Assembly (NCBI GenBank): GCA_008632985.1
Contig: QPGO01000029.1
Span: 322,874-386,873 of the forward strand
Origin: Psammoneis japonica
Taxonomy: Eukaryota
DNA length: 64,000 bases
Reading direction: 5' to 3'
Positions 5,548 through 37,700 of this stretch are shown piece after piece. A program made the translations under genes and the position numbers. The notes beneath the pieces are model-generated. The model did no database searches and had not been told where the DNA came from. It saw only the letters and a program-made list of their open reading frames with translations. How positions within the stretch are numbered: the first letter of the stretch is position 1; every line of letters begins with the position of its first letter.

Positions 5548-5567
5548 TGAAAAAGCAGCAACCTCGG

Positions 5568-10099: not shown

Positions 10100-12520
10100 G
10101 CAAGTTGCTGGGCTGGCCATGATCCCATCACAACAAATGTGCACCGATGTGTCACACTCAATTGCGCTGACTTGTCCATGACGTCTTGCACCCAACCAGT
10201 GCATTGTGATTTAATCTGTTGCGCAGCAGACTCGTGCCGGCTTCGTGTTGTGGATGGAAAAGAGTGCTTCCTTCCATTCCAACCAGCGGTGTAGGAGCTT
10301 GGGGTGGCTTGAGCTTCTTGGGAGAAGGTCGTCCTTCTCTGTGCTCATGCTGGTCCTCTGGGTCCCATTTCAAGGTCTCAATTGGTGAGTCACCTTGGAT
10401 CTTGTGGTGCTGAATCATCACCTTGTAGTCATCTGACATCCACTTGTCTCTTGGCTTTTGCTTGATTGCCTGTGCCCTCTCCCAAAGTGTGTTTTGGTCA
10501 TTTGTCCTGTTGTTGTCCTTAATTGCTTCCTGAGCATTGTTGTGTTTGACACAGAATGCTTCCTGCTCAAGGACATCCCCGTTCAAATGAACTCACCCAG
10601 CAGCGTAAAGTTTCCCACTTGTCAGTTTCTTTGTCCTGTCATGCATTGCAAGTGACCTCTCACCTGCCTTCCTCTTCTGCTGCCATTTGGCCTTGGCCCC
10701 TTCCGTGTTGGCACGAGCGAGAACAACCACCATCTCCTCTGCTGCTGAGCTGTCCAACACGTTCAAGTCTTGCAGCATCTCCCATTTTTCTCAGGAGCAA
10801 GGGCTGGAGACAAGGGTTGATGTTGGCTCTTGTTGTTGGGTCTTGTCCTTCGTTTTGAGGATTTCTGGGTGGCTGAGGCACTTGCAGTTGGGTGGATTCC
10901 AGCCGCATTTGGCAGTGGCATCTTTGCTCCCATCTTCATTGGCAAAGCTTCCATTCCAGCCTGCGTTTGTGGTGGGTGTGATGTCCAACTTGCGGCCATC
11001 AATGGGCAGGTTTGTGGCTCTCTTCAAAGCAACTTGATTGGCTGCATGCACCCAACAGCCAATCTTGAATTGGCCATTCTGCTGGCTGCTGTCCCCCAGT
11101 TGCCAAATGTGAGCACCACACGGAAGGCCAAGACACATGCACCACTTGGTGAGTTCATCATTGATGCACCTGAGAAGCTCCAGATCAAACCTTGTGCCAT
11201 GGCCATCGATCATTGCATGAGGAACGGGGCCTCCCTCAACTCGTGGAAGGATCTCCAACTCGTCAAGGTGTCGAAGAATGTCTGCGAGCATCTCTCCCAT
11301 TGTGCCTGCATGTGGAGACACGGTTGCACAGCAAGGCACACGCTTTTCTCAAAAGATGCACTCAGGTCCACCTGGCATGAGCTTTCCTTTCCCAGCATTT
11401 GCACGCAGCCAATCACTGGCCAAACCATTGTGATCAGAAACATCATCGCAGTCGGCAAACAAATCACATCCTTGACTGTGCAACAGAGGAAGATCTCTCT
11501 TTTCACCCTTCACAATGACAACGCAAAGAACTGGTTGCCCATTTGCTGCAGTGAAGCCCATGGTGGTCCATGGAATGTTGGTTGTGGCGGCGGTCTTGGT
11601 GGCCTTCGATCCCTTTTCCGTCATGACTTTCTCGGTGGAGCGATTGCTGCCAACACGCTGATTTGTGTCATTCCCCACCTCATCTGCCATGAGCAAGCAC
11701 TCAGGATGCTTCATCTTGCATTTCGCAGCATGCCCGTGTGCTTTTTTCTCTGTTGACACTTCATCACCCTGCTTGTCAAGGAATGCGGCCTCCTCAACTT
11801 TGTCCAAAATTCTTGCTTCTTCTTGAAGGCACTCGCAAATTGAGTCGTGCATGAATTTGATGTTGTCGTACATCGCCCACTCCTGCCGATCCACGGAGAA
11901 GCCTTTGGGGCATTTTGCATTGACTCTGTCCCCACGCCAATTCATGAAGCCTTTGCAGTGCTTGATGCCGAGTTCAGCATGTGGATTCTGTGGGTCGGAA
12001 GGCTCGAATCCACGGCGAACCTTTTTCCATTCAACGACTCGCTTCTCGACTGCAGTGCCTTCAATTGGAGAGTTTGCCATTTCCAAAAATTTTTTTGCTT
12101 TGCTGGAGCATTCAGTTGTGCCATTGAATGACAATGTCCAAGAAGCATGCTCTCGACGTCTTGCACCGGTGATGTGCGATGCCCAGTCGTGAGCCGTTGT
12201 GGTGCCTGCTGGGTTGCTTGCATGCAGCTCGATTTAAGATGGATCTCTCCGGCATTTGGGCTGACTCGTCAATCCCATGCTTTACTTTTGCTTCTCCAAT
12301 TGTCTCCTTCAATGTGCCTTTGGGCAATCTCTCTTCTTCGCCATCCTTGAGGAGCTCGCGACATCGAATGAGTTCCTCAGTGGCCCAAACCTTCGCCTCT
12401 TCCAAGTCACTGTCCCTTTGCGTCATTGCTTCTGCTGTGGCTCCTTTGGGTCTTCCTCCTTTGCTTTGGTTTTCAAGTGGTGGAGGGTTGTTGTCATTTT
12501 TGGGTCCTTCCTTTGCTCGG
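10100..12520 (-). pseudogene. Pogo/Tc1-mariner-like DDE transposase, frameshifted and hypermutated
   Basis: Fragments HPECLLMADEVG, WTTMGFTAANGQPVLCVVI, PGGPEC, AMIDGHGTR, LGLPCGAHIWQLGDSSQQNGQFK resemble the DDE_1 catalytic core; candidate terminus near 13195-13245 (two TAAGGACTCARTTC repeats, then TTTTTTACTGG-TA); partner TIR not found. Confidence 0.8.
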
Positions 12521-13491
12521 GTGTCTTCGTCAGAGACAAGTGCGGCTTGCTCTCTTTTCCCACAATTTTTGATCCATGGTTGAATTCGTCACACGTTCCA
12601 AGTTGTGCCCAGAGAGCAATCCCTGCACAAACCCACGTGGAAGGCAATTGGATCCATTCTTGGATTGTTCTTCCAATGCAAGCGACACAGCCTTTTCCAG
12701 GTTTTCTTTGTGGATTTGGTCGGTGATGTTGACAAAGTGACAAGAAGGGCCGACCGACGTTTGTTGCTGTTGATGCGAGGAGAAGGCACTGGCGACACAA
12801 CACTGATGGTTGAAATAGATGAGGAAAGTGGGAGACTTGGACGTCGCAGTCTCTGACTTCTCCTTGTGGGAAGCAACGACGAAACGAGCGCCATGGTGAC
12901 AGTGTCGATTTGTGGTTGGAACGTTGGCGTCAAATTCAAAAGTTTCAAAATCAACGAAGCAGTGCGAGGAGTGATGGCATATGATGTACGTGTCTTAACT
13001 TTGTTGAATCTCGTTTTCGCGTTCAAAAACACAAACGACCATGTTCGACGGCAACGGGCAGCCGGAGAAAACTGAAACACCCAAATCCAAACACATGGTC
13101 AGAAGCAGCAGCAATCGAAGATTGTCTCAGCAACTAAAAAACTTTGATTACTTGGTTTTTTCATCATTTTATGGATCGATTCAACATGTGGGTCGGATAA
13201 GGACTCAGTTCAGTCATAAGGACTCAATTCGGTTTTTTACTGGTAAATCTCCTGCCAACTTCAACTTTTCCCGCCTCGATTTGAATTTCGATTGGCGCAG
13301 ATGGAGGTAAACAGCCACTCTAATGTAACAAACTAAAACTAGAACATGTGAAAATGCTTAGTAGCTCTCTCTAGCTCTAGCTAGAGGGTGCTTTTACTCT
13401 ACGAGATTAGTCTGCTGACGCTTCGACAAACGTGAAAGGAAGGAGGTGAAGCCCGCAACAAATGCTTCGAAAGTGTGCTAATACTTACTCT

Positions 13492-16400
13492 TCATGTGGA
13501 ATCCGCAGATGCAGGATAAGCAGTGTCAGGTTCCAGACGGTCAAGAAGCAAGGACTTGAGCTTTGTCAATTTCAGAGGGAGATCCGGGGTGGGCAAGGTC
13601 TCAAGCACGTTGTCCCGCAAGTCTAATACTTCCAGAAGGACGCAATCGACGATACTTGGCGGTAGGGTCTTGATCCGATTTTGTGACGCATACAAACATT
13701 TCAAATGTTTGAGCCGACCGATTGTTGACGGAAGCCTCGAAAGCTTGTTGCTGGATATGTCAAGGACCTGGCACGCATGACAGCGGCAATGTGAGCACGT
13801 GATTCCCCCCTTTCACAACAACAACAAAGATGAAATGCAAGTAGGAAAGAAGAAAAGAAGACATTGCGTAACGACTGCCGCTTGAAGGGAAACTAGAACC
13901 GGCCACAACTCGACCGAACAAATTACCTGCAAGTTTTCAAAATACAGCCCGATTGTTTCTGGTAACTGAGTCAGAGAGCAATGCTTCAAGCATAGGCTCT
14001 TGATATTGTTTCCGGCGAGAACGATACTCATCGGAAAGGTCGACCTGTCGCAGGCGACCATCTCGTTACGAGGGCGGCCAGCCAACGGAATACTCTGCAG
14101 ATTCACCACGGCAAGTTGGTCTGCAGTTCCGCGACTGATATTATCTACCGATTCATCGCCAAACGTTGACGACACAATGGAATGGCAGGTTTGTCGAGTA
14201 GCACTTGACGTTGAGATCGCATTGTCGTGTCTGTCTTGTTTGAGCGCCGCGACCAAGTTCCAATCCCCGTGCAGAGTAATGTGATTCAAATGCAATCCAT
14301 AATTCGTCACGTGGGAGGCGATTTGCATATGCGTATGGGATATGTCATCTGGCAGTCCAAAACTCACTGGAGATTTCGAGGAGGAATCGTCACTCGAAAT
14401 AGCAGGAAGAGTAGATCTGAGTGCAACGAGCTGAGACCAAAGTAATTCTGAGAACTGAACAACACTTCCATCACGTGGACGAACCATGTTCTGGTCGCGA
14501 CTAAACGGAAACAGAGCATACTCCAATCGACGCTGAGTTTTACCATAGAGACCGATGCACGCGGACAGTGATACACTGATAGCCTGAAGCGGCGCAACTG
14601 CTAGACCACTCAACTCCATGCCAACTTGAGACCCATGGCTATTCTGACGTGCTAGGAACATTGTGATTCGCTTGATACCAGAGTCTAGCTCCGCCAGAGT
14701 TGCTGTTCTACTGACATCATGAAAAGGTCCTCCCCGTTCGGTGAAACTCGTCGTCACCGTATGGACAATGCCAATAACCAAGTATCCCAAAACTATCGCG
14801 TTCTTCAGCAACTGACGTCTCTTGTGCAATGAGGAAGAATGGAGCGTACTTCTTTTGGCACACGCTAAAAACGATGCGAGGGTTCGTTGCAATGATAAAC
14901 CAATCTCGTCTTGAGTTAGAAAAGATGACAGCACGGACTTGCTTGCCCGCACATTTGCAAGCAGTTCCCTAAAAGCCGAAATCTCGTCGCCCTCTTTCTC
15001 CGTTTCACCACGAAGCAAGGCATCTGAAGACGTAACTCCAAGGAGCTTTTCCATTGTCAAACGTAAGGCATCGCTCAAAACGCGCTCCCTGTCTGCTTTG
15101 GAGTTGGTATTTTGAGTTCTCTCCTTCGCAGGACCTAGGAACATCGTCGATATCTCCTCCAGCATGGTCTTCCATTCACTCCCGAGCGTCGCTCCCATCG
15201 AAGGACGCGTCTGGCAAACATAAAGCAACCGCATATACTCAGATAGCATTGCAAATGCGACTTGCGTGTCAAATGCACAGTAGAATATCCCTTGTCTTTC
15301 AGAGTTGTGATCGAATGAATCCCACACCGTTCGTGTTAATAGCTCTGAAAAGAGCTGAAGAACACCTTGTATATTATTCTGGATTGCATTCTCACCTTGT
15401 AGAATTGACTCGAACGAACTGCTTGTGACTTGCTGTAAAAGAGACTGAAGAGCGCGAGCAAGATCAAACCTTCCGGCATGAACGACGACACGAATGCAGT
15501 CCACCACCTTACCAAAGAAAGCAATAAGCTCTGGCACTTTCACTGGAACGTTGAGCTCGTAGAGCAGTTCCAGTCGAGCCCTGGATTTGGCGGCGTTTTC
15601 GAGTCGTCGCCTTTTCGTCATTGGTTCACCTGTCAAACGCTGTCTTGAGCCCCTGCGTACAACTTGAAAACCGCCCCATCGGTATAGCCACTCAATTAGT
15701 GAGCATGAGTCGTCAACACGGTGACGATCCCGTTCGCCATTTCGTTCCAAATCTTCATTCAGCATCCACCAAAAGGTCTTAGCCTCAGTGCGCGTATCTG
15801 AGTAGAAAGTAACCGATTGCTCGTCAGAGTCCTCGTCACTGTCTCGTCCGTACAAGCTTTTTATCCCGACTGCATCAGGATCTTGGTGCTCTTCCGAGCT
15901 CCTTGGTAGAGAAATGAAATCCGATTCGTTGATCCAAGCACACTCCACCGCTTTGAGCACCTCAATGCTTCTCTCTTGAGTTATGTCGTCAGAACTCGCG
16001 GTGCGATTCAATGTTGATGCCCTTGAAGGGCTTTCAACATCTTGGGGGGTGCCGACCGATGCATCTTCTTGAGAGTCTTCTGCAGCTGGAAGCTTTAGCG
16101 GTGGAAGCGGTATTCTTTCTCGCGCAATCATGAGTGCTTTTGAAACCCCCGCTCGTTCTTGAAGATGTTGGTATGGACAACTTGTATCAGCACAGACACC
16201 AGCGAGCTCATATGGGCATAACGCAACATCAGGGTCAACCTCTCCGGTCTGTTTGTTGCGAGGCGTAACAGTACATTCGTCTCTGTCGGTATTTCTTTTT
16301 GCTTCACCTGTATGGTCATATCGTTTAGGAGCAATGGACGAAAAGATGTCCAAGCATGTGTTCTTCAAGGATTCGGCTCGGTGCTGAGAACTTTCGGGCT

Positions 16401-17070
16401 TGATAGTGTCAAGCGCAATAGTTTCGAGAGCATTCACATCCATGGCCTTTCGGATAACTTCGAGGGAATCAAGACACGGGAGGAATGCAAACAAGCCGTT
16501 TTCAGAGCCGCTGCAATTCCAAAAGCTATCGAGTAGCGATTTGTCACAATGTATTGAAGGAACAGGTACCCCCGAGGCCCCGACGCTCTGATCAACCGAA
16601 GAACGCTTCAGAGGTGACTCGTCTTCGCTTTGATTCTGTACGTTGTCCTCACCTGCATCAACCATATTGTGCGGCGAAGATTCTACGGGCATGCCGTTTT
16701 CAGATTTTGAAGATTCTAAATGGAGAGTGGGTGCCATTTTCTCTAGTCGTTCCTGATAAGCTTCCACCGCCTTACGCATTTCTAGCAGCGGCTGCTCCTG
16801 TGCTTTTGCTTCCATCGTCAAACGCTCCTTCTTCTCCATCAGTGTTATGAGCCTCTCATTTTGAAACTTTTGTTTCGAGCTATCCCAACGACATGTTTAT
16901 GGTTAGAGGGAAATCGACACCGTAGGCGCTTCGGATTACATTGCAACTTACCGCTCCAGGTCCAGCTGCAGTGTCAGAAGGTCCCTCTTTTCGCTCAAGA
17001 ATTGCAGCTTCGTTTCGTGAGAGAGTACTTCTTGCTCCAGTCTATGGATATCCTCGTCATTGACACTCAT
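13492..17070 (-). CDS. Large protein with coiled coil, zf-C3H1-type zinc finger and C-terminal leucine-rich repeats; 5' end uncertain
   Basis: 1008-aa ORF with LCPYELAGVCADTSCPYQH; predicted introns 16880-16951 and 13768-13926; last exon VLDISSNKLSRLPSTIGRLKHLKCLYASQNRIKTLP (LRR). Confidence 0.75.
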
Positions 17071-17345
17071 CGTGTTGGTATTTCATTAGCCTCATTGTTT
17101 GTTGAACTGCAAAGCAACTGTGAGCGGTGTGAGGAGTCGAGTCTGCGGCGGCGGCGCAATCGCTCGGATCATTGCCGCTCGAGCTCGTCCCTGTGACTTC
17201 ATTCGAAAGAGCTCGAAGCTCGCAGTGTTGATGGCGGATTCTAACACGACTGATTGATCTGAGGGCCACAATGGCGGGCAATGACGACACGCCCTGTGCT
17301 TCTTGCGTCTCTTGTTACTTTCATCGAGCATCAAGCATCCCCATC

Positions 17346-18179
17346 ATGTGCAAAGCACCATTGTCGGGATACCTCAGTCTTGAAACCGTGGAGGTATCAT
17401 TGGATGAAGAATTAGAGTTAGTGGAAGACGATCTTGAACAGATGGAATTATCCGATGACGAGTTGTCGTCATACGCGCTGCCAACGCGTTCCATCAAACT
17501 TCTGTGTGAGGATTTGAAAAGCGACGACTTCGACAAACTAGCAAAGGCTACAGAAGATCTTTATTACTTGATTGAAGGTGACAGTGACGAAGCAATTGCC
17601 AATTGCGAGCAAATTATCGACGCAGGAGGGCACAGCCTCTTGTTGCTACAAATCGAAAAGTTTCTTCTTGAGGAGAATCAGAAGCATTCAGGTCATTTAT
17701 ACTTTATCTTAGGCGCTCTGAATGTGCTCTTCATCATTTCAGGGGATGCAATTCCTTCCAGGAAGATGGTTTTTGAGCACCCATCTTTCGTTGTTACCGT
17801 TTTGGATGCCATGGCCATTGAACACGAGTATCCCGGAATGGACGTATTTGTCTCCGCTTGCTGTCTCTTGGTGAATCTAGTATCTGACGGCGGCTTTTTT
17901 ACCGGAAATTTCTCCTCGGTGACGGTGATTCGTGTTGTTGTAGAGAAGATGAAAATTCATGACAACAACGAAATCGCGCAGAGCATAGGCATAGGTTTTC
18001 TTGATAGCCTCATTCAATTGTGCCGGACGGAAACTGAAAGGATTGTTGAAGAGGCCAGAGCTGTCGATGCTTTTTCGGTGCTTGTCAGTGCCGTAGGGAA
18101 CTTCCCTCTCAATGAAGAAATCAGCTGTAGAGCCTACAGATGCTACATGGCTTTTATCGAGCACGGGTACTTTCATTGA
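17346..18179 (+). CDS. Hypothetical helical (ARM-like) protein
   Basis: 302-aa ORF with an acidic N-terminus and amphipathic helical repeats (IIDAGGHSLLL, SACCLLVNL); start could be 17271. Confidence 0.65.
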   Translation: MCKAPLSGYLSLETVEVSLDEELELVEDDLEQMELSDDELSSYALPTRSIKLLCEDLKSDDFDKLAKATEDLYYLIEGDSDEAIANCEQIIDAGGHSLLLLQIEKFLLEENQKHSGHLYFILGALNVLFIISGDAIPSRKMVFEHPSFVVTVLDAMAIEHEYPGMDVFVSACCLLVNLVSDGGFFTGNFSSVTVIRVVVEKMKIHDNNEIAQSIGIGFLDSLIQLCRTETERIVEEARAVDAFSVLVSAVGNFPLNEEISCRAYRCYMAFIEHGYFH

Positions 18180-18953
18180 ATGGCTGCCCTTTTGAACTAT
18201 CTTGGCATTGAGCTGTTCTGACGCAACAAAAGCACGTACTACGGACTAGACTTGAAAATGCACGAATTTCCATAGAGATGCAATCTTGTCGTTCTCATTG
18301 TTTGGCAACGAGGAAGGGGTTGCAGTGTCGTTTCTTTTGGTCTAGCTACACCTACTGTATTTTTCTGCTATTTGCAGACCGTTGTTGCATAATTAGTAGT
18401 CGAACACCACGGAGTTGAACCTAGCTCGCGTCATATTGTGTCTATACTACTTCGTGCTGAGATTCGAACGACATTCGATGGCGATCTTCGCTTATGCCAT
18501 GTGTACCACGCTTCCATGGGACTCTATTCCGCTATGCTCCAGCTCTTCTGACAAGGCAGCGCATTAAACCGCATTCGATGGTGCCACCAGCATTACTCTA
18601 TATGGCGAAAGCAGCCAGAGCAATTTCACTGTGAATATAACGAATCGAAACAAAGACAAACGTGGATTTGAAGGTTATGAAGTTGGAGTTGTTTGCTATG
18701 GTAGTTGCTCTTCTTTGGCTAGACAGCTCTAGTAGTTAGAGCTAGCAGTAGTGACCTATCGGTATGAATGCACACAACCACACAGTCGGGCAACAAAGCA
18801 TCACCTGCAATATATCGTATGGAGACGAGAAGTCAATCAATAATGTGTTGAAGTCTTAATAAGGGCTTTCACTATAAATACTATATGCTTTCTTGTCCAT
18901 ACACAAACGACCAAGCAACGAGAACAAGATGAAGCAAGTGCTATTTCGACTCT

Positions 18954-19670
18954 TTACTCGTAGCCCTCCACCGGCTCGATCCATTTGCCAGGGGATGGAC
19001 GTCGGTTCCGCCAAACAGAAGCGAACTCGTCATCCTCGTATTCACTGTCAGACGCATCTTCGACCACGATTGTCACGCGTTTACGTCGAGGTCTAGATGA
19101 CTTCTTTGGTGTTGCAACTGTCATCTCCTCGTCACCGATAGTAACAGACGATGTTGCTTTTGTCTCGATAGGTACGCTAGTTGGTTGCAGTCTCGTTTTC
19201 TTCGGGTGAACACAGGTTTCAACTTCCATTTCATCCGTCTCGGGACTTTCAGGAGCGTTCAATACATCGCTGTAATCGTAAGGATCATATTCGTTAGGTA
19301 CAACGCGATAAAGCTGGCCGTCGGCGCCTCTGACAATTGGGAATCGATCACGCTTCGAGCGTCGCAGCTTCTGGGCTCGTGATGCAGAGGCCTCTTTTCG
19401 TCTGATTTCCTCTTCTTGTCTCTTTTTCTGCAAGTAGATTTCTCGGCGTCTTTCTTCTTCCTCACGTTGTTGTAATTCGGCTTGTCGCTGTAGCTCTCTG
19501 AGACGCCTTTGTTTGGCCAGTTGCTCCTTCTCGAGTTGCATTTGATACTGCCTCCGCTCCAATTCAGCCTGTCGTCGCGCCTCCAGCTCTCTTTCTCGTC
19601 TCAAACGCCGAAAACTCAAGTCATAGGGAGAGGCATAATTGTCCTCATAGAATGGGAAACGATTAAACAT
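18954..19670 (-). CDS. Hypothetical coiled-coil protein
   Basis: 238-aa ATG-started ORF, E/R/Q-rich coil, C-terminal VVEDASDSE...WRNRRPSPGKWIEPV. Confidence 0.75.
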   Translation of the reverse strand: MFNRFPFYEDNYASPYDLSFRRLRRERELEARRQAELERRQYQMQLEKEQLAKQRRLRELQRQAELQQREEEERRREIYLQKKRQEEEIRRKEASASRAQKLRRSKRDRFPIVRGADGQLYRVVPNEYDPYDYSDVLNAPESPETDEMEVETCVHPKKTRLQPTSVPIETKATSSVTIGDEEMTVATPKKSSRPRRKRVTIVVEDASDSEYEDDEFASVWRNRRPSPGKWIEPVEGYE

Positions 19671-19974
19671 TGTTGTCGCTTTTTGTTGTGTCGTGCAAAG
19701 AATGCGTTTCAGAAAAATTGTGAGCAGATGCAGGTCGCCTTCAAGACGATTTCGATTCTCGCCGAAGAATTCGTTTCTGATCTTTTTCTGACGTCAGCAG
19801 ACGTCATATGTAGAAACCATATGGATATCTACGTAATCGTACTGTATCAAACAGCGAAAAGATGAAAAAAGTTCGAAGGTGAAGAGGAAAAAGGGAAAAG
19901 GGGGCAAGGAATGGCCTCTATTCATAGGAGATAGGAACTCCTGACAAACAGCTGAAGGCAAAACAACTTCTACT

Positions 19975-20514: not shown

Positions 20515-20636
20515 AGAGATTGATTTCATATTTGGTGAGGATCGCTCAACTCCAATAATAATTTTGTAAGATCATAGTTTACCCTTAATATTTCTTCGCA
20601 ATAGTACTCGGAAGATATCTGAAAGGAGCGCTTAGT

Positions 20637-22265: not shown

Positions 22266-23271
22266 TTTGTTTTTCTTTGGACTACTTGTAGAAAGCAAGA
22301 TAATATGGAAACTCAACGACAGCGACAACAATAACAACAACTTCTTCGGAGGTCGTCGGGGTTCTTGAGTCTTGCGTGCGTCGTGCCTCGAAACAGTTCG
22401 CGGGCTTTCAGTGAAATCAGTAGTAGTCTCGTGTGCTTGCTTTCAGGATAGGCAGGGAGGCGGGAATGATGACGTGCGTGGTCCGTCCGTCACTCGTTGT
22501 CGGCCGTTCCTCTGATCCCGCCCTCCCATAGTAGAGGGCCCTACGTACTCTATAGCTAGCTACAGTAGAGAGTAGCTAACTACTACTAGAGGTATCCTCC
22601 GAACCGGTACTTGTAGTGTGAAGACACCTGGTTACTCAATACGTATGTATGGCATACTTAACTCTACTACACAGTAGTTGCCATTTGTTATTGGCTATGA
22701 ATTGAAAGATTGAAGTCCCTCGTGGCATGATCAACGGACCCAGTCGAGTTCAAATGATCAAAACGCTCGGATTGCTTCAGGCAGCGTTTCGTGATTGAGT
22801 CGCGTGAGGAGACACGGGCGGATGACAACCCGAAACCCCCTAACATACACGTGCGGGTTGGCAAGAACTCCCCAGCTAGCTACCAGGGCAGCTGCTTTAG
22901 AGCCAGCTAGCTAGAGAGTGTCTCACTCATCTCAAACCATCTGCGCGACTCGCTTGGCCAGTGGGATCTAAGTAGTCGTAGGCCCTAGAGTCAAATTAGG
23001 CCCTAGAGTAGAGTCGACTAATTCTCGATTGGTCCTCTTCCCAAAGGATGTGCGGGGTGCGGCTGCTTAACGGTTAAGGGAGCCTACTATTGGATGCGTG
23101 CACTGCACGTCACCAGGGCGAACATTTTGTAGAAAACAGAAGTGTCCGTCGTTTCAGTCGAATGAATGATGATTCTAGTCCATTTTGACAACAATACAAA
23201 CAAGGTACACCCCAGACGAGAAGATGACGAGCGACAAAGATTTTTCAGACAACCAAGAAGTGTGATTTTGT

Positions 23272-23865: not shown

Positions 23866-24285
23866 TTAAATGACAATGTGATAGAAGTGGGGGAAGGGGT
23901 TATAGATGGACTTGATATTCGCGGAAAGCAACAACAAGAAGCCAACAGCAACAGCCAACAGAGCACAAAAAATCGGAAATCGCCGTGGCTGGTCGGTGGG
24001 AGTTTTGTGCGCGAGAGCGAGAGCGATAACGTGCGCGCTGGTTCTCTGTCCGCATCGTTTTCCAGCTTGCATCAAGCTTGCATTGCTGAGTTACAAGTCT
24101 CCCCTTCCATCGATGCTAACTAATGCACACTGAAACGCACACACTGTAAAGAAGAGAAGTAAATCTTCCAGAGAAAGTAAAGAGCTAAGATATTTTCTTA
24201 CTATTTGCAGGTACTAAAAGGCAGTAAAACACATGCATTGCCATCCACTTTGGCAACATGCTAGTCTATAATATGTGACCTCTTT

Positions 24286-27335: not shown

Positions 27336-27539
27336 ACCACAAGGACGGGAACACTTTCACTTTGCATTGTATTGTCGGGCCTATATCAAATTCAATAAGA
27401 AACATATGAATACAGCATAATCAATTTAGTGAAACCTAAAATTAGCCTCTCGCTATGATTGGACAGCATTAGTTGATGCGCGAGCAAGTGGCGGAAAAAT
27501 TGGGCTAGCATCGCGGATGCTGCTCTGGTGTTTATGTTC

Positions 27540-29030
27540 AAACCTCTCGTCTTTCATCCAAGCGCATCATTGCCCAAAGAAATGATGGCACACACAGGTT
27601 GGACAGAAGCAAATGTGTCAAGAAGAGGGAGCTGGGTGAATGGCAAACATTGTTTGATGCAAGCTTTGTGGTGGAAGCATGCCAGTTAAAATGCACTGCA
27701 TGCAGCCATGGTCAATTTTGTTCCACCAACACTGCTCATTGACCAAACCAAGGATTTGGAGACTGAGCTCTCTTTCTCACTCACTGACATGGCACAGGTG
27801 CTGATTGCACCCATCTCGGGGGGGGGGGGGGCAGCAGAGTTGCATGAGTGAGGTGTTCAGTGATCTCCTCATTGTGACAAGCCAACCACCAATGTGTTCA
27901 CAGTGTTGAGCGAGGCTCAAGATGCTGAAGGGCTTGTTGAGGCAGCTGAGAAGCCACTGGTGACACCATGAGTTATGGGAGGCATGGTGCAGAGGAGCAC
28001 AAGGTGACAAAGATGAGTGGAGGATGCGGCTGCAAGCAAAAACTCACTCTTGAACTCATCAACATGTTGCAGCACAACATTGATGAAAGAAAGGAATGAG
28101 CTTGCTGCAGCTTGTGTGGCAATCACAGGCTTGCGTGCTGCTTCTGTGTCAGCCATCTGATGCAGAAGCAGATTGCGGAAGATGACACCCCCCATTTGCA
28201 CAGGGGGAGGCACAGACCACCATCTCTCATTGGTCTCCAATCTGTGCCAAACAACCAACGGGTCAGTTGCCCTCTGTTGCTCTTGACTCTCCTTTCCTCT
28301 GGTGACTGATGTGCTCTTGGACAAGTTCCACATCAAGAGCTGTCTTGCACTGTGTTGATGTGAAGTGGCTCCAGCAGCGTGCCCAACAATCAAGCAACAA
28401 CTGGGGCAAGACTGCGTGCAACTTTGATCCCCAACTGTGTGAGAACGTGTCACCCCAAATGAGTCAAATGTACAACAGCAGTCCACAATTGCAACACACA
28501 AATTATTCCAGGTGCTTTTTGTTGAGTGTCAAGTCAACCCATCATTGTGCATGATGTGAAACATGCAAAACAACCAACTGCAAGGATGAGAGATGAGACT
28601 GGAGATTGACTTTCCCAGCTGCTGCAAGGGTGCATCACCAAACAAGCCAAAAGCACAATGATGGTCAAGAATTGTTGTGTGCAAGTCATTTCAGGTGCTT
28701 TTGTTGGCTGTCAAGTTGATCTGCCGTGTGCAAACAATGTGAAGTGGTGCCAGCAGAGTTCGCAAATGACCAGAGCAAAGCACTGGCTCATGTCGCCCCC
28801 ACAGCACAATCCATGCTCCTGGCTCAGTCCACATCACTCACAAAGTTTCAACACAGTGAATGACAGAACGTCAACACCTTGCTTTTAGAACATGATGCAA
28901 AACAAATGGCTGTGAGAAAGACAAGGGCAGACAACACCCTCCAAAACATCAAAGCACGACGCTGCACCACAAGACGCACAACTGCAACTCGTCAACACAC
29001 TGACTGTTTTCACCACAACACCACATGTTG
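27540..29030. repeat. TpA/CpG-depleted repeat island 2 (unidentified decayed element)
   Basis: Almost no TA dinucleotides, Tyr-free fragmentary ORFs, internal diverged repeats (CAGGTGCTTTT..GTCAAGT at ~28510 and ~28692). Confidence 0.6.
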
Positions 29031-29253
29031 TACATGTCAGTCATAGGGTGGGGATTGTCAGTGGCATGGAGCCGATCGTCTTTGAAATGAGCATCGCAGA
29101 GATGAACGCCATTTTCACCTTGATGGTACAGAAGCTACGCAGCGCGATCGGGCAGCGATTGATTTTGGGCGGATGCGCCCAAGCAAAAGTCAAAGAAAAT
29201 GAATGAAAGCAAGCAAGAAGTAGGTACCGGTAGCCCTAACAGTTGTACTTGTA

Positions 29254-31407
29254 ATGATATCTTCTTCTTTGTCGTCGTGGCGTCTGAGTAGTGCAGCGGT
29301 TGTTCTTCTATTCGTCCTGTTGATCCAATCGGCAACAACATCTGACTATGCAAGCACAACAGGAACAACGACTGGTTCCACCACTTCTAGCACTAGAAGA
29401 AGGAGGCCACATATTGTGTTGATTGTTGCTGATGATTTTGGCTACAATGATGTTGGTTTTCATCAGAATGTTAAAACAAGAGCCAATCCACTGGGTTTAC
29501 CAACCACCAATGATGCAGCTGGGATAATGAGAACGCCAACACTTGACAAACTTGCATCAGAAGGTGTACATTTAGACAATTATTATGTACAACCACTATG
29601 TTCCCCAACACGGTCTGCTTTGATGACGGGACGTTATCCATCGCATACAGGGATGGGTCCAGATGTTGATCGCATTGATTGGCCAATAGGTGTACCATCG
29701 AAAGAAATCTTTTTTCCGCAATATCTACAAAAGTTGGGTTATAAGACGCATATGGTCGGGAAGTGGCATTTGGGGGCTTGTGATCAACGATATACGCCAA
29801 CTTATAGAGGATTCGATTCCTTTGCTGGATTTTTAGCTGGTGGACAAGGATATTACGATCAAAGGAATGATCGAAAATCGTCATCTCCAAACACCTTGGG
29901 GGAATGTTTATCAGGAGATGAATACAAATACAATTACAGCAGTATCTTTTTTGCTGACGAATGTACAAGGATTATCGAAGAACATGATGAGGACTGTGGA
30001 AAAGAAGAAGAACCGTCGCCTCTCTTTTTGTATCTGGCTTTCCAATCCGTACATAATCCATTCGATAAGCCACCGATTGACGTTGATGAATTGTTTCCTG
30101 AAATTGTAAATCCAACGCGACGGATATATGCAGGTATGGTCAAAATGATGGACGATGCCATCGCTCGAGTCGTCAAATCCTTGAAGGAACAAAAGCTGTG
30201 GGATGATACAGTGTTGATATTTACATCTGACAATGGTGGTATTGGGCCGGGAAGCAACTATCCGCTTAGGGGAACGAAAGTACGGCATTGGGAAGGTGGT
30301 ATCAAAGCAGTTGGGTTCATAAGAGGTACCAACAATCGCAGATTGAAACCGCTCCCTCCGGGAACGACCTGTAATGAGCTCTTTCATGTCACAGATTGGT
30401 TCTCAACGATTGTTGAAGGAATTGCTGTGGATGACATCAAGAACAAAGATCTAGAAAGTGTACAAAGTCAACAATTGCCTTTAGATGGCTACAACCAATG
30501 GACAGTCTTACATGGTGGCAGCTATATTCGTACGAATCGTACGACGATCTTCCACAACGTCCCGGTTGGCGCAAAACCAGTTCTAATTGGTAAGGATGAG
30601 ACAGGTCGTCCACTTTATTCCAATTCCATGTGCATGCACTACGTTGACAATCGAACTGGACCCTGCGCTACTTTTGGTCTAACGGGCGGAGCTATGAGGC
30701 ATCATCAATGGAAACTATTGATAACAGCAGGATCCAATGCACCATGGGGCGACAGTTCCAAATTGCAAGATCAAGTACCTCCTGGTGGAAGATATCCAAA
30801 CAAGACTAGAGTCTTCCAACCTTCATCGAATGATACAATGCCAAAAGCATTCCAGGGGACATACTACCTTTTTGATATAGACAACGATCCAACAGAAACA
30901 CACAACTTGGCTGAATCCAAGCCAGTAGTTTTGAAGTCAATGTTAAAACTTTACAACGATTATGCAGCCACGGCTGTTCCAGCTTGGACTTGGAGATGGG
31001 GATTCACAGATCCAAGTCACGCTGACAATCCTGGTACTCAGGGAATGATTCAGCGACATGTCCAAGAAGAAGACGTTCAAAAAGAGAATGAAACCGATCT
31101 TCCATTCCGAAACGAAGAGCTGCTACAATCTTGTATAGGTCCTTTCCTTGGTTCTCAATACTGTAGCTACGGGCACGAGTATGAATGCTATGTTATGGGT
31201 TCTTATTGGTCCGGACATGATTGCAAAAACTCTACCAAAAGTTCAGACACAAATAGTACTACCATTGAATGCCAAAAATTCTGTGCAGCTACACTGGACT
31301 GTCAGCATTGGGTGCTTCACAATGCGATTTGTCATCTCAAGTCCGGAAAAGGCGAACTACATCCGTGCAATAATTGCATGTTTGGTCCCAAGCATTGTCC
31401 AGAATAA
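29254..31407 (+). CDS. Secreted arylsulfatase (arylsulfatase B-like) with a Cys-rich PAN/apple-like C-terminus
   Basis: Signal peptide; PHIVLIVADDFGYND, CSPTRSALMTGRY (formylglycine motif), VGKWHLG, FTSDNGG. Confidence 0.93.
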   Translation: MISSSLSSWRLSSAAVVLLFVLLIQSATTSDYASTTGTTTGSTTSSTRRRRPHIVLIVADDFGYNDVGFHQNVKTRANPLGLPTTNDAAGIMRTPTLDKLASEGVHLDNYYVQPLCSPTRSALMTGRYPSHTGMGPDVDRIDWPIGVPSKEIFFPQYLQKLGYKTHMVGKWHLGACDQRYTPTYRGFDSFAGFLAGGQGYYDQRNDRKSSSPNTLGECLSGDEYKYNYSSIFFADECTRIIEEHDEDCGKEEEPSPLFLYLAFQSVHNPFDKPPIDVDELFPEIVNPTRRIYAGMVKMMDDAIARVVKSLKEQKLWDDTVLIFTSDNGGIGPGSNYPLRGTKVRHWEGGIKAVGFIRGTNNRRLKPLPPGTTCNELFHVTDWFSTIVEGIAVDDIKNKDLESVQSQQLPLDGYNQWTVLHGGSYIRTNRTTIFHNVPVGAKPVLIGKDETGRPLYSNSMCMHYVDNRTGPCATFGLTGGAMRHHQWKLLITAGSNAPWGDSSKLQDQVPPGGRYPNKTRVFQPSSNDTMPKAFQGTYYLFDIDNDPTETHNLAESKPVVLKSMLKLYNDYAATAVPAWTWRWGFTDPSHADNPGTQGMIQRHVQEEDVQKENETDLPFRNEELLQSCIGPFLGSQYCSYGHEYECYVMGSYWSGHDCKNSTKSSDTNSTTIECQKFCAATLDCQHWVLHNAICHLKSGKGELHPCNNCMFGPKHCPE

Positions 31408-31756
31408 GCTCTGTAACATCTTTCAATCATGGGGATTAGCCCTTCGGTGTAAACATGGTGCATGTCCTTCTAGAAGCTGTCATCCGGCATTTCCTAGCCA
31501 CAGAAGATGGCTCGCAGCATCTGAGCGATAGTCCTACAATCGTACCACGTCGCATTCGACAACGTCGTAGCGCAATGTCAAGTGGATTGAACATTTTGAA
31601 CCATTGTCCAAAACCCATAGACCAAACTCGCAGAAGAATCAATTGAAAGGGCCAAGGAACCGCTCTGGATTGGACAAGGATGATTGTTTGCATTCCCAGC
31701 AGGTGGATTGCAATTTGAAAGCTCAACCACCCTTGTTTTCAGTGTGGCATTGTGTG

Positions 31757-34700
31757 CACACATGTTGAAGTGATGCAAACAGCAAAAGGAGTGCCCCCTG
31801 CGTTGCCTCATTTTGCAGCTGCAAAAGCCACTCCTGAAGCACCTTTGCTGAGCTTTGTCTGACTCCTTAGGGTGTGGGGTGACAAACTGTCTCCAGATCA
31901 AGAACAGCTGCTCTTGAGCTTGTCCAGCATGCAGCAGCAGTTGTGCAAAATGGCAGCAAATGGAGAGAAGCAGTTGGTTGCATTTTGTGCATGCTGTTTT
32001 GTTCTCCACTTTTTTTCTGATGCTTGAGCCATTTGCAAGGACAAAACAATGCAAAGCAAACATCAACTTGCTGCAAAGCACAAAAGAGCAGCAGTGACTC
32101 CTGAGCTCCTGGCAAAGCTCTGGCTGACAGTGTGGCCAGTGCCTTTCTTGTGCTGCAGCCACTGCAGAAACCAAGTGACCCCGAGAGTTCACTGAGCTTG
32201 CATCTCTCCATTTGCAGGGAGCTGTGGAAAAACACAGAGAAAGCAAAGCTGGCTGAACATGGACATGATGTGCCTTGGCACCCTGCAAGTGAAATGTGCA
32301 GAGGTCACTCTGTGCTGTGACCATCCATCTGTTGAACGGTCTTGACAAGTTGTCCATGAATGCTTTCTAAAAATTGTGGGAAAAGCTGCGATTGACTGCA
32401 GCCACAGTGTTCAGGTTTCTGTCATAGAATTTCTTCAAGGTGTCAACAATCCCGGTCATTTGAATCTCCCAAATCTTGCTTCTAATGATGTGATTATGAT
32501 GCAGAAGTTTGCTTCACTCTTCCCTTCCACGATTCATGTGAATGCTTTGAATCGCAATCCACCCAATCATGCCGAAGTCAACATGGCAAAATGCACCAAA
32601 CATTGATCCTTTCAAACACATGAGGCACTCTTTGCATGGCGACATTCCCATTCACATGAATCTGTGTGATGGGAAAAGGACCAAAAGATCTTTCTTCCGA
32701 CTTGGTGGGATCATCTGTTTTGACCAAAACCTGTTGCCCGACACAACAGTCAAAAAAACAATTTTTTGAGATTTTGCCGATGCAAGTTGTCATCAATCAA
32801 CACTTGTTGACAATCCCAAATGGCAACCAGATCTGCAATGAGAGGCAAATCAAGAAACATGTCTCTCTGGCAGATGAGAGCTCCTGGTGAAATTCCCAAG
32901 ACTCTTGAGGCAGCACATCATAGACTGTGCATGGTTGTGGCCAATGCGTTGTCAACAATTTGCTGAGCTTCCATCACATTGTAAGGAGGATGTCCTCTGA
33001 CTGCAGAGTTTGAATGATGTTGCCAGCTGTCTGATGCATTCTTTTGCAAATGGCATTGGCTTGAGGATTTCTGGTGGTGGTTTCTGCATCCTTGATTCCA
33101 GCCCTTGCCAACAGAATCTGAAATGGTTCACCAACAAATTCACTGCCTTTGTCATGGATGCAACGGTTTGGTTTTGGACATCTTGCCAACCAACAATTAG
33201 CAAACTTCATCTGCACATGATCTGAAGTCTTGTTGTCAGTGCGAACCAATTCAACAAGGTTAGAAACACTGTCAATTGCAGTTGGCACATTGAACTCAAC
33301 TTTTTGTTCTTGCATTTGTGTTTTCCAAGGACCAATTGAATCAATGGCAACTTCATCCCAAGGAACCAAAGGGACTTCTCTTGGTGGCAAGCAACTGCAT
33401 CCCACTCCCCAGAGCTTGTTCCTTTGGCATGTGTTGCAATGACAATTCTTGACCAATCGGCACAATGATGGATGGTGACAATGCATGCAAATCGTGCAGC
33501 AGAGCTTCTGCATGCCACAGTGCCATAAAACTTGATGATGCCACCTGACAATGGGTGCCAACAAAGCTGTTGGCAAAGCAATTGCCAATCATTGTCTTGT
33601 GCGTTGACATCAGGTCTCCAACAAATCAATGGAACTCCACCGATGTGTCAAGTTGGAAAATGAAGCAGACTCCTTTGTCGCTCTTGACTCAGCTCACAAT
33701 CTTCAAACTGAAACAACCTTTGCATGTCAGGACAATTCATGGGGTGCTGCATCTCTTCTAGACTTGGACAATTCAAAAAGCAATCCACCAATTCTTGATC
33801 TTGAATGGTGCAGAGTGGGGTGCTCAATTCTGGACCCAAATTTTCTTCAAGCGATTTGTCTTCTGGAGCCATGGCAGTTGGGGAGGAACAGAAAAATCAA
33901 CAATGGTGCCTTTCGACTCCACATCAGAACTCTTCCCTTCCACGGTTGCTCTCCACATGAAGAAATTGTGAAAAGAAATCAGCTGGAAATCAGCTGGAAT
34001 GTTCTCCTTGCCCTTGATGCATGCAAACTTGGGTGCAAATTCTTCGAGAAAAAGGCGCCAACGAAGCACTCGTTGTGTGTTTAGCATCTTGAAAGTCAAA
34101 TTCTTATGATCCACAAACACTGCCATGTCAGCTTCCAAAGATCTGCAGCAAGCATTTCTTTTTCCATGGTGGAGCAGTTCTTCTGGGCTGCATTGAGTTT
34201 TCGGGACCAACACGAGATCAGCTTGCCATTCTGTGTGACAACAGCACCGAGCTGATGATCACTTGCATCTGTGTGAATCTGCCAAGGAAGGTTATGATCA
34301 GGGTGAGCAAGCGACACATCACCCACCACAATGGCCTTGATCTCCTCAAAGGCTTTCTGACAAGCTGGGGTTCATTCAAAATGTTGCTTTCTGGTCAAAT
34401 CCATTGGCGGCACCAAAGCATGAGATCGCTGAGGCCACATGTCACGACAGCAAGTGACGGCTCCAACAAAAGATCTGAGTTGTGTGTGGTTCTTGGGAGG
34501 AGCAAGTTTGAGCACTGCCTCTGCTTTCTTCTTCCAAGGCTTGACACCTTCCAGAGTCATCCAATGTCCCAAAAAATTGGTTTCTTGAACGGCCCATTTG
34601 CACTTGAGCAGATTCACTTTCAAGCCGTTTTGCTCTGGTCATTGCAATGTGGCACTCAACACAGCCAGATGCTCCAACCATGCCACCGAGAGGAGACCAA

Positions 34701-37700
34701 CATCATCAATGAAACAATCTGCATCAATCTCATTCATCACTTCTTCAATGATGGCTTGAGCAACATCTGTCACCGGCTTCAAACCCATTGTGAGTCGACA
34801 ATGTCGAAACTTGCCACAAGGAGCAACAACAGCACACAACTCCTTGGACTCTTCATCAAGCTCCAAAGCACAACAGAACATGGACAAATCCAACTTGGGG
34901 GAAATGCTTGCATCCTTTTCTCTTCTTGACAATGTCTTGAATTCTTGGCAAAGGACACATTGGCCCTTTTAGTGCCTTGTTGAGCATGCAAAAATTGGAC
35001 ACCCATCGCACTCGCTGATCCTTTTTGGGAATGATGAACAAAGGAGATGCCCAACAGGTGGGGCCACAAGGCCTTGATGCTTCCATCTGAACAAGATGCT
35101 GAAGCTCTCTCTTGAAAATCTCTTCATGAACCTTCGGGACTGAGTGCTGTCGAGCATGAACCGGAATTGCACTGGGATCAATTTCCAAGTGGACCAATTC
35201 ATGTGGATGCCAACCCAATTTTCCATCAAACACCTTCAGGAACCTGGCCAGTGCTTGCTGCAATTCCAGTTGCTGCTCTCTTGACAGACATGTTTGCCTC
35301 TTAGCTGCTTCTTCTAGAGATGCTGCTGACTCACATTTGGCACCCAGAATTTGCGTGGTGAGTGAATGAAACTTGATCTCGTTGATTTCTTCTTCTTCAA
35401 CTTCTGGACCTGCAAGAGCAAAGTGAGCATTTTCTGCATTGTCCCAAAAGGTAAGTTCCTTCATGGGTGTGGACTTGCCCAACCACTTGACTGTCCTTGA
35501 TGAAAAGTTCACATCAATTCCCATCTTGGTCAAAAAATCCGATCCAAGAATCACATCGTAACGGCACGGCATTTGAAATGTGAGAGCCCTTTGAAAATCA
35601 ATGCTTCTTGATCTGTTGAATTCAGGTGGCACAATCATCTCCAAACCAACTGCTCCATTGCTCTTCATTGGTCCTGCAGCTGTGTTGCATGCTGCTGTCT
35701 TCTTGAGCAGGCTTGGAGCAGCTCCACATGCCAAACATTGCTCGTGAACAAGAGCAGTTGCACTGCCTGAATCAAACAACATTCTTGATGAACGAGAACA
35801 GAGTGAGCTCCATTCACTTGTTTGCATGCAAGGACTGATGCAGGTGCCATGTCAGCATTCATGCTTTTTACATTGGGCACCGGCATGCCACCACAATTCA
35901 ATCCCATTGGCTCTTCTTGATTTTTCTCATTCTCCATGTTGCTTTCATGTGACAAACATGTGTCATGTGAAGGTTCATGTTCAATTGGTGCATTTGTGTC
36001 AATGGCAATGACATTGTCAACTTCAAAGCTGACACCAGGACTGGAGCAGCACTCCAAGCTGGATCACAATCCAGGTCCTCTTAGACATGGACCTCATCTG
36101 ACATCCACTCCTCCTGACGTCTTGTCAGGACCTCCTGGCAGACCACAGCCTGCCATGTCAAAGTGGCGCACATCTGCACCCCACTCTTGTGACTGCGCAT
36201 CAGTCAGAGAAGCTTGTCAAGCTGGGTGAGCATTTGGTTCTTCTGAACTGCTCTGCACCTGACATTGGTTTGCACAAAAATTCTGAGGCAAATTCTGCTG
36301 ACCGCATCCTCGGCCCACACTGTTCTGGTTGTAACCACGGCCATGTCCGCCTTGGCCACATCCAAAACTGTTGTTGGGGGTGTGTCCACCATCGCCACAT
36401 CCATGTCTCCAGCACAGTTGGCATTCTGAGGGCCACAAAATCAACCTCCATGGTTTCCTCGGCCTGGACATTGGTTGCAACCTCGCCCACAACCTGCATC
36501 TCAGCCTGCACTTGGCAAACCTTGGCCACCCCTCTGAAAATGAGGATTTGGATTGCAACTGGGACTCTTGAGATTCTCCCTGCAATTTCACCACAAAAGA
36601 GGTGCTGCAGAGTCCTTGTGCAATCAACAACAGGAGTCGGGACCAAACTTCTTCTTGTTCCCGGCAGAATCCACATCTCCAGCTCTGCACTTCTTGGGCT
36701 CCTCTTCAGACTTGCCAGAACTTTTCTGATCAGCAAATCCTTTCTCATTGGACACATGCTGAGTGACATCTTCTAAGGAATCAGTGCTGACATCCTTTCC
36801 AGCATGCACACAACTCTGCTTCCACATCATCGGCATTCCCATGAATGTGTTGTTCTTGATTTGTTGCTCATTGAGCAAAGGCTCAGTTCCTGGCAGCTTG
36901 TTGGCACAATGTGACATTTGAATCATCCTGTCAGCATGCTCATGAGGAGAATCACCAAAGGGTTTAGAGAAGTTTTTTTCAAAAATTCAAACATCGTGTC
37001 ACGTGCTTGATGATCGCAGTGTCACTGATGGAAGCACGCAATTTCCGCATCAAACCTGGCCATCATCCGATCTGCTCCTGTGGTGCCTGAAACCAAATTG
37101 CTCCATGCGTCTTGAGTGTTGTCATCCAGTGCTTCTTCACAATGGGTGAATTTTTCAGGCCCTTCATCACAATCCAAATGCTCGGCACAGTTTTCAAATC
37201 ACTCTGCAGTGCAGAGCAAGCACTCAATGCCACACTTGCCGGTGAACTGAGGGCACATCTTCTGTTTCTTAGCACCATCGTCACAGTTCTGCACAAGTTT
37301 CACTTTGTCCAAATCTCCGTGCTTGGTGAAGGTTGATTTGTGCACAAAGCACGGTGCTCTCAATGAGGCTCTCACCAAATGCGACATTGCGTTTGAGGCA
37401 AAGAATGCACAGCAAAGAAAAAAAAGGAAAGAACAAGACACAGTGTGATCACAGTGAATGGTCTTGACAAGCTGTCTACAAACACTTTCTAAAAATCATG
37501 GGAAAAGCTGCGATTGACTGTGCAGCCACAGTGCTCGGGTTTCTGTCACAGAATTTCTTCGAGGTGTCAACAATCCCGGTCATTCGAATCTCCCAAATCT
37601 TTCAGCTGATGACACAATCATGATGCAGAAGTTTGCTTCATCTGTCTCCGCTCCACAGCCACCCATGCTGCAGCACAGCAGCCTGTGCACCCAAACACTC

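Follow-up and report, generated by a model that had tools for sequence, protein, structure and literature searches.

Loss of tyrosine codons and near-erasure of TpA in repeat tracts of a Psammoneis japonica contig point to A-to-G hypermutation after insertion

Why have the decayed transposons of one genomic stretch lost almost every tyrosine when the genes beside them kept theirs? We address this question for a 64,000-nucleotide stretch of Psammoneis japonica, probably a diatom (stramenopile), taken from contig QPGO01000029.1 of assembly GCA_008632985.1 (positions 322,874 to 386,873, forward strand); this stretch is called the window below, and all coordinates refer to it. An earlier note, made from the letters of this DNA, had proposed that Tyr was systematically replaced by His or Cys in catalytic motifs of two transposon frames, one in a Ty3/Gypsy retrotransposon and one in a DDE-like transposase, as would follow if TpA steps had become CpA or TpG on both strands. 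Its observation is confirmed and its interpretation supported, firmly so for the Gypsy element. We consider it very probable that, after insertion, a process acting on DNA mutated TpA by A>G change on both strands throughout repeat domains while sparing genes.

A process of this type has been described in Bigelowiella natans by Mettrop et al. 2026 (bioRxiv 10.64898/2026.01.13.699255). According to the main text of that preprint, two integrated viral regions accounted for 231 of 302 mutations in mutation-accumulation lines; with a single exception these were A>G or T>C changes, each of which lay on TpA and gave TpG or CpA. The same text reports an excess of reverse transcriptase (RT) and DDE endonuclease domains among TpA-poor coding sequences, and it proposes, as a candidate not tested there, an ADAT2-like deaminase. 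Among literature titles and abstract openings, this preprint was the sole description of TpA-restricted hypermutation, and none concerned diatoms. Its main text, by term search, makes no mention of diatoms, of a wider sequence context or of tyrosine loss.

Tyrosine fate in the transposon frames

All eight peptide strings quoted in the earlier note were found on the minus strand, five in the Gypsy element (34010-34884) and three in the frame that it had called DDE (11100-11708). Four of the five Gypsy motifs lie in an RT/RNase H segment of the pol region (P0001, 34099..34968, minus strand), which contains no Tyr in 290 residues. A HMMER search with P0001 against 1.84 billion representative proteins gave 43,911 matches at E<=0.001, the closest intact ones being 46-51% identical, and Tyr density in the relatives' matched segments had a median of 4.0 per 100 residues. 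Eleven close intact relatives in this identity range had Tyr, in most or all of them, at every Gypsy site that had been named, including DASD-Y-QLGAV and QRN-Y-TT (each in 10 of 11) and the sites A-Y/F-Y-SRKL, SMQ-YY-TF, VT-YY-RDMW and xIxY-IKG. The proposal would have been undercut had intact relatives carried His or Cys at these positions; at both the Gypsy and the DDE-like sites they carry Tyr.

The fate of each consensus residue was followed by aligning 30 full-length relatives (900-1700 residues, Tyr above 2.5%) to the window by tblastn. A consensus column was one that at least 8 of the 30 relatives covered and on which at least half agreed, which left 377 columns. At the 20 columns with consensus Tyr the window reads Cys in 12, His in five and Phe in two, with one Tyr kept, so that 17 of the 19 changed columns became Cys or His rather than a random mix. 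Non-Tyr columns were kept in 260 of 357 cases (Fisher exact test against the Tyr columns, p = 9.3e-10). A wider and more diverse set of 116 relatives over the RT/RNase H segment gave seven Tyr columns, which had become five Cys and two Phe with none kept; five Tyr-poor relatives, three of them present in the alignment, had been excluded from this count. Overall, 2 of the 1448 residues encoded by the pol and DDE-like frames are Tyr (0.14%), with His, Cys and Trp raised, compared with 91 of 3390 (2.68%) in nine host open reading frames (ORFs) of the window.

To characterize the changes at the level of bases, the 116 changed pol columns were sorted by the single-base change that explains each, four remaining ambiguous. 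An A>G change explained 31, and the altered A followed T in 27, C in three, A in one and G in none (binomial p = 6e-13 against 0.25). Changes of C>T preceded G in 12 columns, C in six, T in five and A in one, and Arg codons had become Gln, His, Cys, Trp or stop codons, as in CpG decay. Judged from these codon changes, the A>G class is almost confined to TpA, on top of CpG decay and ordinary divergence. Tyrosine is nearly erased because it is the sole amino acid whose codons (TAY, with Y a pyrimidine) must contain TpA. Both strands were mutated, as the earlier note had argued from the two outcomes, TGY and CAY: the 12 Cys and five His columns represent one strand each, and the imbalance between them is not significant (p = 0.14).

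The same loss recurs in public relatives. Four predicted proteins related to this pol (P0010, P0013, P0014 and P0065) have at most one Tyr in each matched segment, with His or Cys where the consensus has Tyr, and these Tyr-less relatives sit in four other public protein clusters with NCBI, ENA and Logan sources. In P0010, P0013 and P0014 the choice between His and Cys differs from that of the window copy at the same columns, which indicates independent mutation events. When the Tyr-less P0013 was compared with the intact P0006 (69% identity over 689 residues), 32 Tyr had become 16 His, 12 Cys, three Phe and one Val, and Arg was kept at 41 of 46 positions. A check that the earlier note had suggested, reverting the proposed changes in silico, came out divided. 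With all His and Cys scored as Tyr, the total of the column scores fell by 19 bits rather than rising, but 10 of 22 sites did improve, compared with 0-5 of 16-46 for the residue classes used as controls.

The second frame is a dead DDE-like transposase ORF (10794..12233, minus strand; 480 codons with one in-frame TGA), which has one Tyr in 480 residues and one TpA in 1440 bases. A search of the whole ORF among longer proteins gave two relatives, P0172 (36% identity) and P0173 (30%), while no relative appeared in a near-length search, a longer-protein search of its C-terminal half, PDB sequences (E<=10) or a first metagenome scan. Tyr is shared by both relatives at four columns, which in the window read Cys in three cases and His in one; of the 31 columns with Tyr in one or both relatives, eight are Cys and three His in the window, and none is Tyr. 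Cys stands opposite Tyr in both relatives in the motifs LLRCIN and GLPCGA, and in one of the two in HPEC. As this test draws on two relatives of 30-36% identity, the sample is small.

The label DDE_1 given to this frame earlier was not confirmed: Pfam found no family for the ORF at E<=10 or for P0172 and P0173 at E<=1. Atlas feature matches to DDE_1 clusters (0.80 and 0.88-0.89) should be treated as leads only, and the best-scoring Atlas clusters (0.95-0.96) are unnamed and mostly from Bacillariophyta, a weak hint at a diatom host. An AlphaFold2 model of P0172, built from a 3-sequence alignment, was too poor for a fold search (mean predicted local distance difference test score, pLDDT, 36.9). 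Tyrosine loss appears to extend to this ORF on thinner evidence than in Gypsy, and a pogo/DDE_1-like assignment is a weak lead only.

TpA-erased tracts and the genes between them

A 500-base profile of dinucleotide observed/expected ratios (O/E) across the window delimits five TpA-poor tracts with sharp edges, which sum to 21,742 bases. TpA occurs 64 times in the tracts against 1441 expected (O/E 0.044) and 1622 times outside them against 2876 expected (O/E 0.564). CpG is also depleted (O/E 0.365 in the tracts, 0.958 outside) and CpA plus TpG is enriched (1.71 and 1.15, respectively), while the density of pyrimidine-purine (YpR) steps is 0.2384 per base inside and 0.2360 outside. This constant total indicates that TpA and CpG were turned into CpA or TpG and not lost in other ways. 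The contrast in TpA, the conserved YpR total and the 27 of 31 A>G changes after T bear out the cause that the earlier note had proposed. It was also right that CpG decay, although present (O/E 0.37), cannot make CAY or TGY from TAY.

Loss of TpA is restricted to these domains, and the genes between them are spared. Host ORFs between tracts have a TpA O/E of 0.4-0.9, and the sulfatase gene at 29224-31404, which lies between two tracts, has an O/E of 0.54-0.71 and encodes 31 Tyr. Inside the tracts, stop triplets counted on both strands comprise 1049 TGA, 61 TAA and 33 TAG (92% TGA, 1049/1143), compared with 1597 TGA, 649 TAA and 756 TAG outside. Because nearly all stop triplets are TGA, the tracts hold many long spurious ORFs: those of at least 90 codons number 4.2 per kb in the tracts and 2.6 per kb outside, a 1.6-fold difference.

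The loss of TpA can be separated from that of CpG. Over bases 2001-3000, TpA O/E is 0.06-0.21 and CpG O/E 0.94-1.11, and TpA-erased DNA with near-normal CpG implies that the two processes are not coupled base for base. More generally, the tract margins at 2001-3000 and 12001-12979 have TpA O/E of 0.06-0.21 with CpG O/E near normal at 0.68-1.11.

The few TpA steps left in the tracts are not a random sample. A T before or an A after the step (TTA/TAA context) is found in 49 of the 64 survivors (77%), including 12 in TTAA, compared with 37% of 1627 TpA outside the tracts (Fisher p = 5e-10) and with 48-55% of tract CpA/TpG steps in the same type of context. The outside baseline is mostly coding and avoids in-frame TAA, so we take this bias as a hint at a wider sequence preference of the mutator and not as a result; recent C>T change at TCA may be another source of it.

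Tract T1 (2052..12979; 10.9 kb) has 24 TpA in 10,928 bases, with TpA O/E of 0-0.21 in its 500-base bins, and contains a copy of a repeat resembling a miniature inverted-repeat transposable element (MITE), unclassified repeats, a 17-nt satellite and the DDE-like ORF. Tract T3 (31619..38202; 6.6 kb), with 28 TpA in 6584 bases, comprises the Gypsy element and its target repeat R1, and T4 (42356..43606), with two TpA in 1251 bases, houses a second copy of that repeat, R2. The remaining two are T2 (27534..29030; 1.5 kb, five TpA in 1497 bases), between the phosphoribosyl pyrophosphate (PRPP) synthetase and sulfatase genes, and T5 (47008..48489; 1.5 kb, five TpA in 1482 bases). These two 1.5-kb tracts are flanked by intact host genes; their ORFs matched no Pfam family, and neither tract has a second copy within the window. 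Among 36 other tract ORFs, chosen from 104 listed, none matched a Pfam family at E<=0.01.

Further features were recorded along the window. Within T1, a 124-bp unit occurs twice in tandem at 5300-5547 and a 139-bp duplication joins 5568-5706 with 5794-5932, the short tandem duplications of this tract having 90-96% identity. The sole 500-base bin with TpA above expectation (O/E 1.30) is 22501-23000, between a UBX-domain gene region and a phosphoribosyltransferase gene. An assembly gap of 363 N occupies 59167-59529.

Insertion, repeat copies and the timing of TpA loss

The Gypsy element (32333..37640, minus strand; 5308 bp), now dead, was recognized by its pair of long terminal repeats (LTRs), a target-site duplication (TSD) and pol homology. 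Its 3' LTR on the element strand is at 32333..32516 (184 bp, with TG...CA termini) and its 5' LTR at 37455..37640 (186 bp), and the TSD, TCTGT, was read from the junction sequence at 32328..32332 and 37641..37645. Such LTR ends together with a 5-bp TSD identify an LTR retrotransposon. The pol region (32584..35851, minus strand; protease, RT, RNase H and integrase) is colinear with full-length relatives by tblastn, its segments lying in alternating frames with at least three frame changes and at least two in-frame TGA, two of them in the RT/RNase H part. With stops read through as X, P0001 scored above the Pfam cut-offs for RT_RNaseH_2 (2.4e-21), RT_RNaseH (2.2e-12) and RVT_1 (6.2e-8), whereas single pol ORFs gave only a weak rve match, so the read-through segment was needed to detect RT and RNase H. 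The integrase core segment (32977..33588, minus strand) matched rve at E 4.2e-4 with 21 bits, below the 32.6-bit cut-off, and tblastn aligned it with the integrase region of full-length relatives. The order RT, RNase H and integrase last, given by Pfam and tblastn colinearity with the rve match weak, is that of Ty3/Gypsy elements.

Low TpA is not inherent to this family. The 80 best-scoring of 361 confirmed metagenome loci, a choice that favours intact copies, have TpA O/E of 0.45-1.04 (median 0.72), and the window element has 0.068, with 26 TpA against about 283 expected at the median density of these loci. The element is inserted into R1, one copy of a 1.16-kb repeat family whose halves lie at 31757..32325 (left, 77.6% blastn identity to R2) and 37651..38223 (right, 80.7%); the uninterrupted counterpart R2, also delimited by blastn, is at 42464..43626 in T4. 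Erasure in T3 continues past the TSD into the interrupted R1. The LTR pair dates the loss relative to insertion: 23 differences separate 184 aligned bases, and 18 of them lie in YpR steps, including five CA-versus-TG, four TA-versus-CA/TG and four CG-versus-TG/CA. The mutation of TpA took place after insertion.

The MITE-like repeat provides a further comparison, with copy A at 1558..2066 (about 508 bp, with terminal inverted repeats) and copy B at 2083..2590, inside T1. The left 205 bp of copy A are unmutated and hold 14 TpA, and its right 300 bp are TpA-free until 2032. Thirteen of the left-hand TpA could be aligned to copy B, where they read CA in nine, TG in two and TA in two, with the reverse change at no step, while 15 of 17 CpG over the same 205 bp survive in both copies. 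Both copies are TpA-free over the right 300 bp, where they differ by 12 opposite CA/TG steps. Since copy B loses TpA and keeps CpG, and P0013 against P0006 loses Tyr and keeps Arg, TpA loss can far outpace CpG loss. The left edge of T1 may thus lie at about 1763, within copy A, where the left 205 bp escaped mutation despite a homologous part in copy B; in this single case the tract edge is not a homology boundary.

DNA other than retroelements was erased as well, namely the 17-nt satellite, unclassified repeats, the MITE-like copy and the DNA-transposon-like ORF. The satellite, detected by Tandem Repeats Finder as two arrays (6488-6955 and 7250-9926), spans about 3.4 kb with a consensus unit near AAAGGGCGCAAAATCAC; it is TpA-free, has a strong A-over-T skew, and its units differ at CG/TG/CA. 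It also yields a spurious 429-codon ORF at 8529-9818.

Other genomic copies of the Gypsy element were sought in contigs from one sample, run X1, which contain 81% of sampled words of 31000-38600. Contigs at single-copy depth (62-77) are identical to the window in the flanks and in three stretches of the element (33209-33638, 34147-34342 and 35698-36009), the second of which includes three of the motifs named in the earlier note. Summed contig depth over the element is 230-1386 compared with about 62 in the flanks, which implies a Gypsy family with many copies of at least 90% likeness. The best-supported 40 of 132 places where copies differ amount to 36 events: in eight another copy keeps CG, in four the copies have opposite CA/TG, in three a surviving window TpA is CA/TG elsewhere, in one another copy keeps TA and in one CG has become CA, the others being 16 other transitions and three transversions.

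Could the transitions instead stem from base modification in silent DNA, with 5-methylcytosine (5mC) in CpG and some hypothetical adenine modification in TpA being misread in the consensus? Methylated motifs do cause systematic consensus errors in some long-read assemblies, and the signature here is confined to probably methylated DNA. Against this stand the exact matches of single-copy-depth X1 contigs in three Gypsy stretches, the Tyr-less relatives in the four other public protein clusters and the opposite CA/TG at matched LTR steps, which misreading would not give. The same signature is also present in the Illumina mutation-accumulation data of B. natans, as given in the main text of Mettrop et al. 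(bioRxiv 10.64898/2026.01.13.699255). We attach next to no weight to a consensus artefact.

Editing of RNA before insertion deserves a closer look, as the Discussion of Mettrop et al. points out that ADAR-type enzymes favour U before the edited A. Retrotransposon transcripts edited from A to I at UpA by an ADAR- or ADAT-like enzyme could have been fixed by reverse transcription; the Gypsy family is multicopy, as the summed depth indicates, and most of the listed inter-copy differences are not TA-versus-CA/TG, so some loss could predate copying. However, the two LTRs derive from one template at insertion and differ mainly at YpR steps (18/23), erasure reaches R1 beyond the TSD, the satellite, the MITE-like copy and the DNA-transposon-like ORF, and both strands are affected (12 Cys, five His). 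Hyperediting of the ADAR type captured by retrotransposition was rejected as a candidate: it predicts edits that are identical in both LTRs and confined to the retroelement, and neither was seen. Collectively, the LTR, MITE-like, independent-event and satellite data favour a process on integrated DNA, and we judge editing of transcripts to be very improbable.

The same data speak against functional recoding, in which selection against TpA or UpA, by a TA-cutting nuclease or a UpA-cleaving RNase, would have produced elements that work with His and Cys. Expressed RNAs and RNA viruses do show under-representation of UpA through selection (PMC3829696). Here, however, pol carries frame changes and in-frame stops, non-coding repeats and the satellite are erased equally, dead copies pick His or Cys differently at the same column, and the 80 relatives (best of 361) have normal TpA. 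Recoding by selection can be discounted almost entirely.

Several observations nonetheless weigh against mutation of TpA after insertion, or limit how far the data can carry it. X1 is possibly the source data of the assembly and would then not be independent, and YpR steps hold only 17 of the 36 copy events in the best 40 of 132 places. The TpA-poor signature was found in none of the 80 metagenome relatives, the best of 361 and chosen in a way that favours intact copies. Between R1 and R2, 128 of 187 mismatches lie outside YpR steps, and CA-versus-TG steps between copies cannot be polarised here, as their ancestor may be TA or CG. In pol, two Tyr columns became Phe and one Tyr survives, and general decay is large, with 30 transversions, 27 changes needing more than one step and 12 C>T outside CpG among the 116 changed columns. 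Finally, the mechanism is read from a footprint.

In the explanation that we favour, mobile elements inserted first; adenines in TpA were then mutated to G on both strands, which leaves TpG on the strand that was hit and CpA on its complement. The mutation spans whole repeat-filled domains with sharp edges and leaves the host genes between them untouched. Tyrosine, nearly wiped out, gave way to Cys (TGY) or His (CAY), also within catalytic and structural motifs of Gypsy pol and the DDE-like transposase. CpG decay, presumably by deamination of 5mC, runs in the same domains as a slower and separable process. What the data show is the signature with its limitation to TpA, hits on both strands, a date after insertion, confinement to domains and the sparing of genes. 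We infer that the agent is a DNA adenine deaminase, as Mettrop et al. propose for Bigelowiella, that it is guided by silent chromatin rather than sequence homology, and that it serves genome defence.

A passive origin would need neither a dedicated mutator nor a defence, as silent, late-replicating or poorly repaired chromatin could gain TpA>TpG/CpA through biased polymerase or repair activity. The tracts do coincide with CpG-decayed, presumably methylated silent DNA, and T1 begins on its left within a repeat copy rather than at a homology boundary, as a chromatin domain would predict. Near-total erasure (O/E 0.044) and the strict 5'-T (27/31) are nevertheless hard to obtain from a general repair bias, and copy B and P0013 against P0006 lose TpA while keeping CpG or Arg, much faster than ordinary decay. 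In B. natans, moreover, the main text of Mettrop et al. gives a rate about 1000-fold above background in only a subset of lines, which suggests regulated activity. We consider a passive origin unlikely, though less remote than editing of transcripts.

Significance and comparison with known systems

The only source so far for chromosomal A-to-G hypermutation targeted at one dinucleotide is a 2026 preprint that deals with one alga. A saturated footprint of this type in transposons of what is probably a diatom widens the phenomenon to a second major lineage, one of great ecological weight, and broadens its targets beyond integrated viruses to transposons and satellites. Loss of Tyr codons, the 92% share of TGA among stops and a constant YpR total offer read-outs for screening other genomes. 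In such tracts gene finders over-call long false ORFs, transposon domains escape profile searches, and LTR divergence overstates the age of repeats several-fold.

It is conceivable, though we hold this only tentatively, that diatoms and chlorarachniophytes share a DNA adenine deaminase system that rewrites TpA on both strands in silent, invader-derived chromatin, rather than in homologous repeats, and is old within the Stramenopiles, Alveolata and Rhizaria (SAR) group. Equally tentatively, such a system would outpace CpG methylation decay, act independently of it, and kill integrated viruses as well as transposons and satellites; it may spare TTA/TAA. If true, this would be a second genome defence resembling fungal repeat-induced point mutation (RIP), but chemically opposite.

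The closest likeness is to the hypermutation of B. natans. In both cases mutation falls on TpA only, yields TpG or CpA depending on the strand, is local to foreign or mobile DNA, and leaves TpA depletion with CpA and TpG enrichment as its long-term footprint. Three features that define TpA-restricted hypermutation are found in the window: A>G on TpA, depletion of TpA with a gain of CpA and TpG, and confinement to mobile DNA with genes spared. The settings differ, as B. natans is a chlorarachniophyte with integrated giant-virus and virophage DNA, whereas mutation here affects transposons, a satellite and unclassified repeats of what is probably a diatom. The region of nucleocytoplasmic large DNA virus (NCLDV) origin in B. 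natans has a Rho of 0.45 in the preprint's main text, compared with O/E of 0.04-0.07 here, which is near saturation. Unlike in B. natans, CpG decay runs alongside here, and the process is known from its historical footprint, whereas in B. natans it is known from de novo events.

Deaminases of the ADAR/ADAT and APOBEC types also make transitions, prefer a particular 5' neighbour (U or T before the edited A) and inactivate mobile or viral sequences, as the Discussion of Mettrop et al. sets out. These enzymes act on RNA or replicating cDNA, whereas the evidence here points to integrated double-stranded chromosomal DNA, including non-retroelements, as the substrate. Decay of CpG through 5mC affects the same tracts (CpG O/E 0.37) and also feeds the CpA/TpG pool, but it does not convert TAY to CAY or TGY and is separable from TpA loss, with copy B keeping 15 of 17 CpG and losing 11 of 13 TpA.

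In Neurospora and other fungi, RIP is a dense transition hypermutation of repeats that acts on one dinucleotide and both strands, forms sharp-edged blocks and kills transposons. It converts CpA to TpA by C>T change, so that TpA is enriched and CpA and TpG are depleted. This comparison is also drawn in the Discussion of Mettrop et al. (bioRxiv 10.64898/2026.01.13.699255). The window resembles RIP in the targeted transition hypermutation of repeated and mobile DNA, the specific dinucleotide and the sharp-edged blocks. Fungal RIP itself was rejected as a candidate: its defining C>T at CpA with TpA enrichment fails, and the composition shift here is the opposite. The edge inside MITE-like copy A is a hint that, unlike in RIP, the process is not triggered by homology among copies. 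The two processes run in opposite directions, RIP making TpA by C>T and the change recorded here erasing it by A>G.

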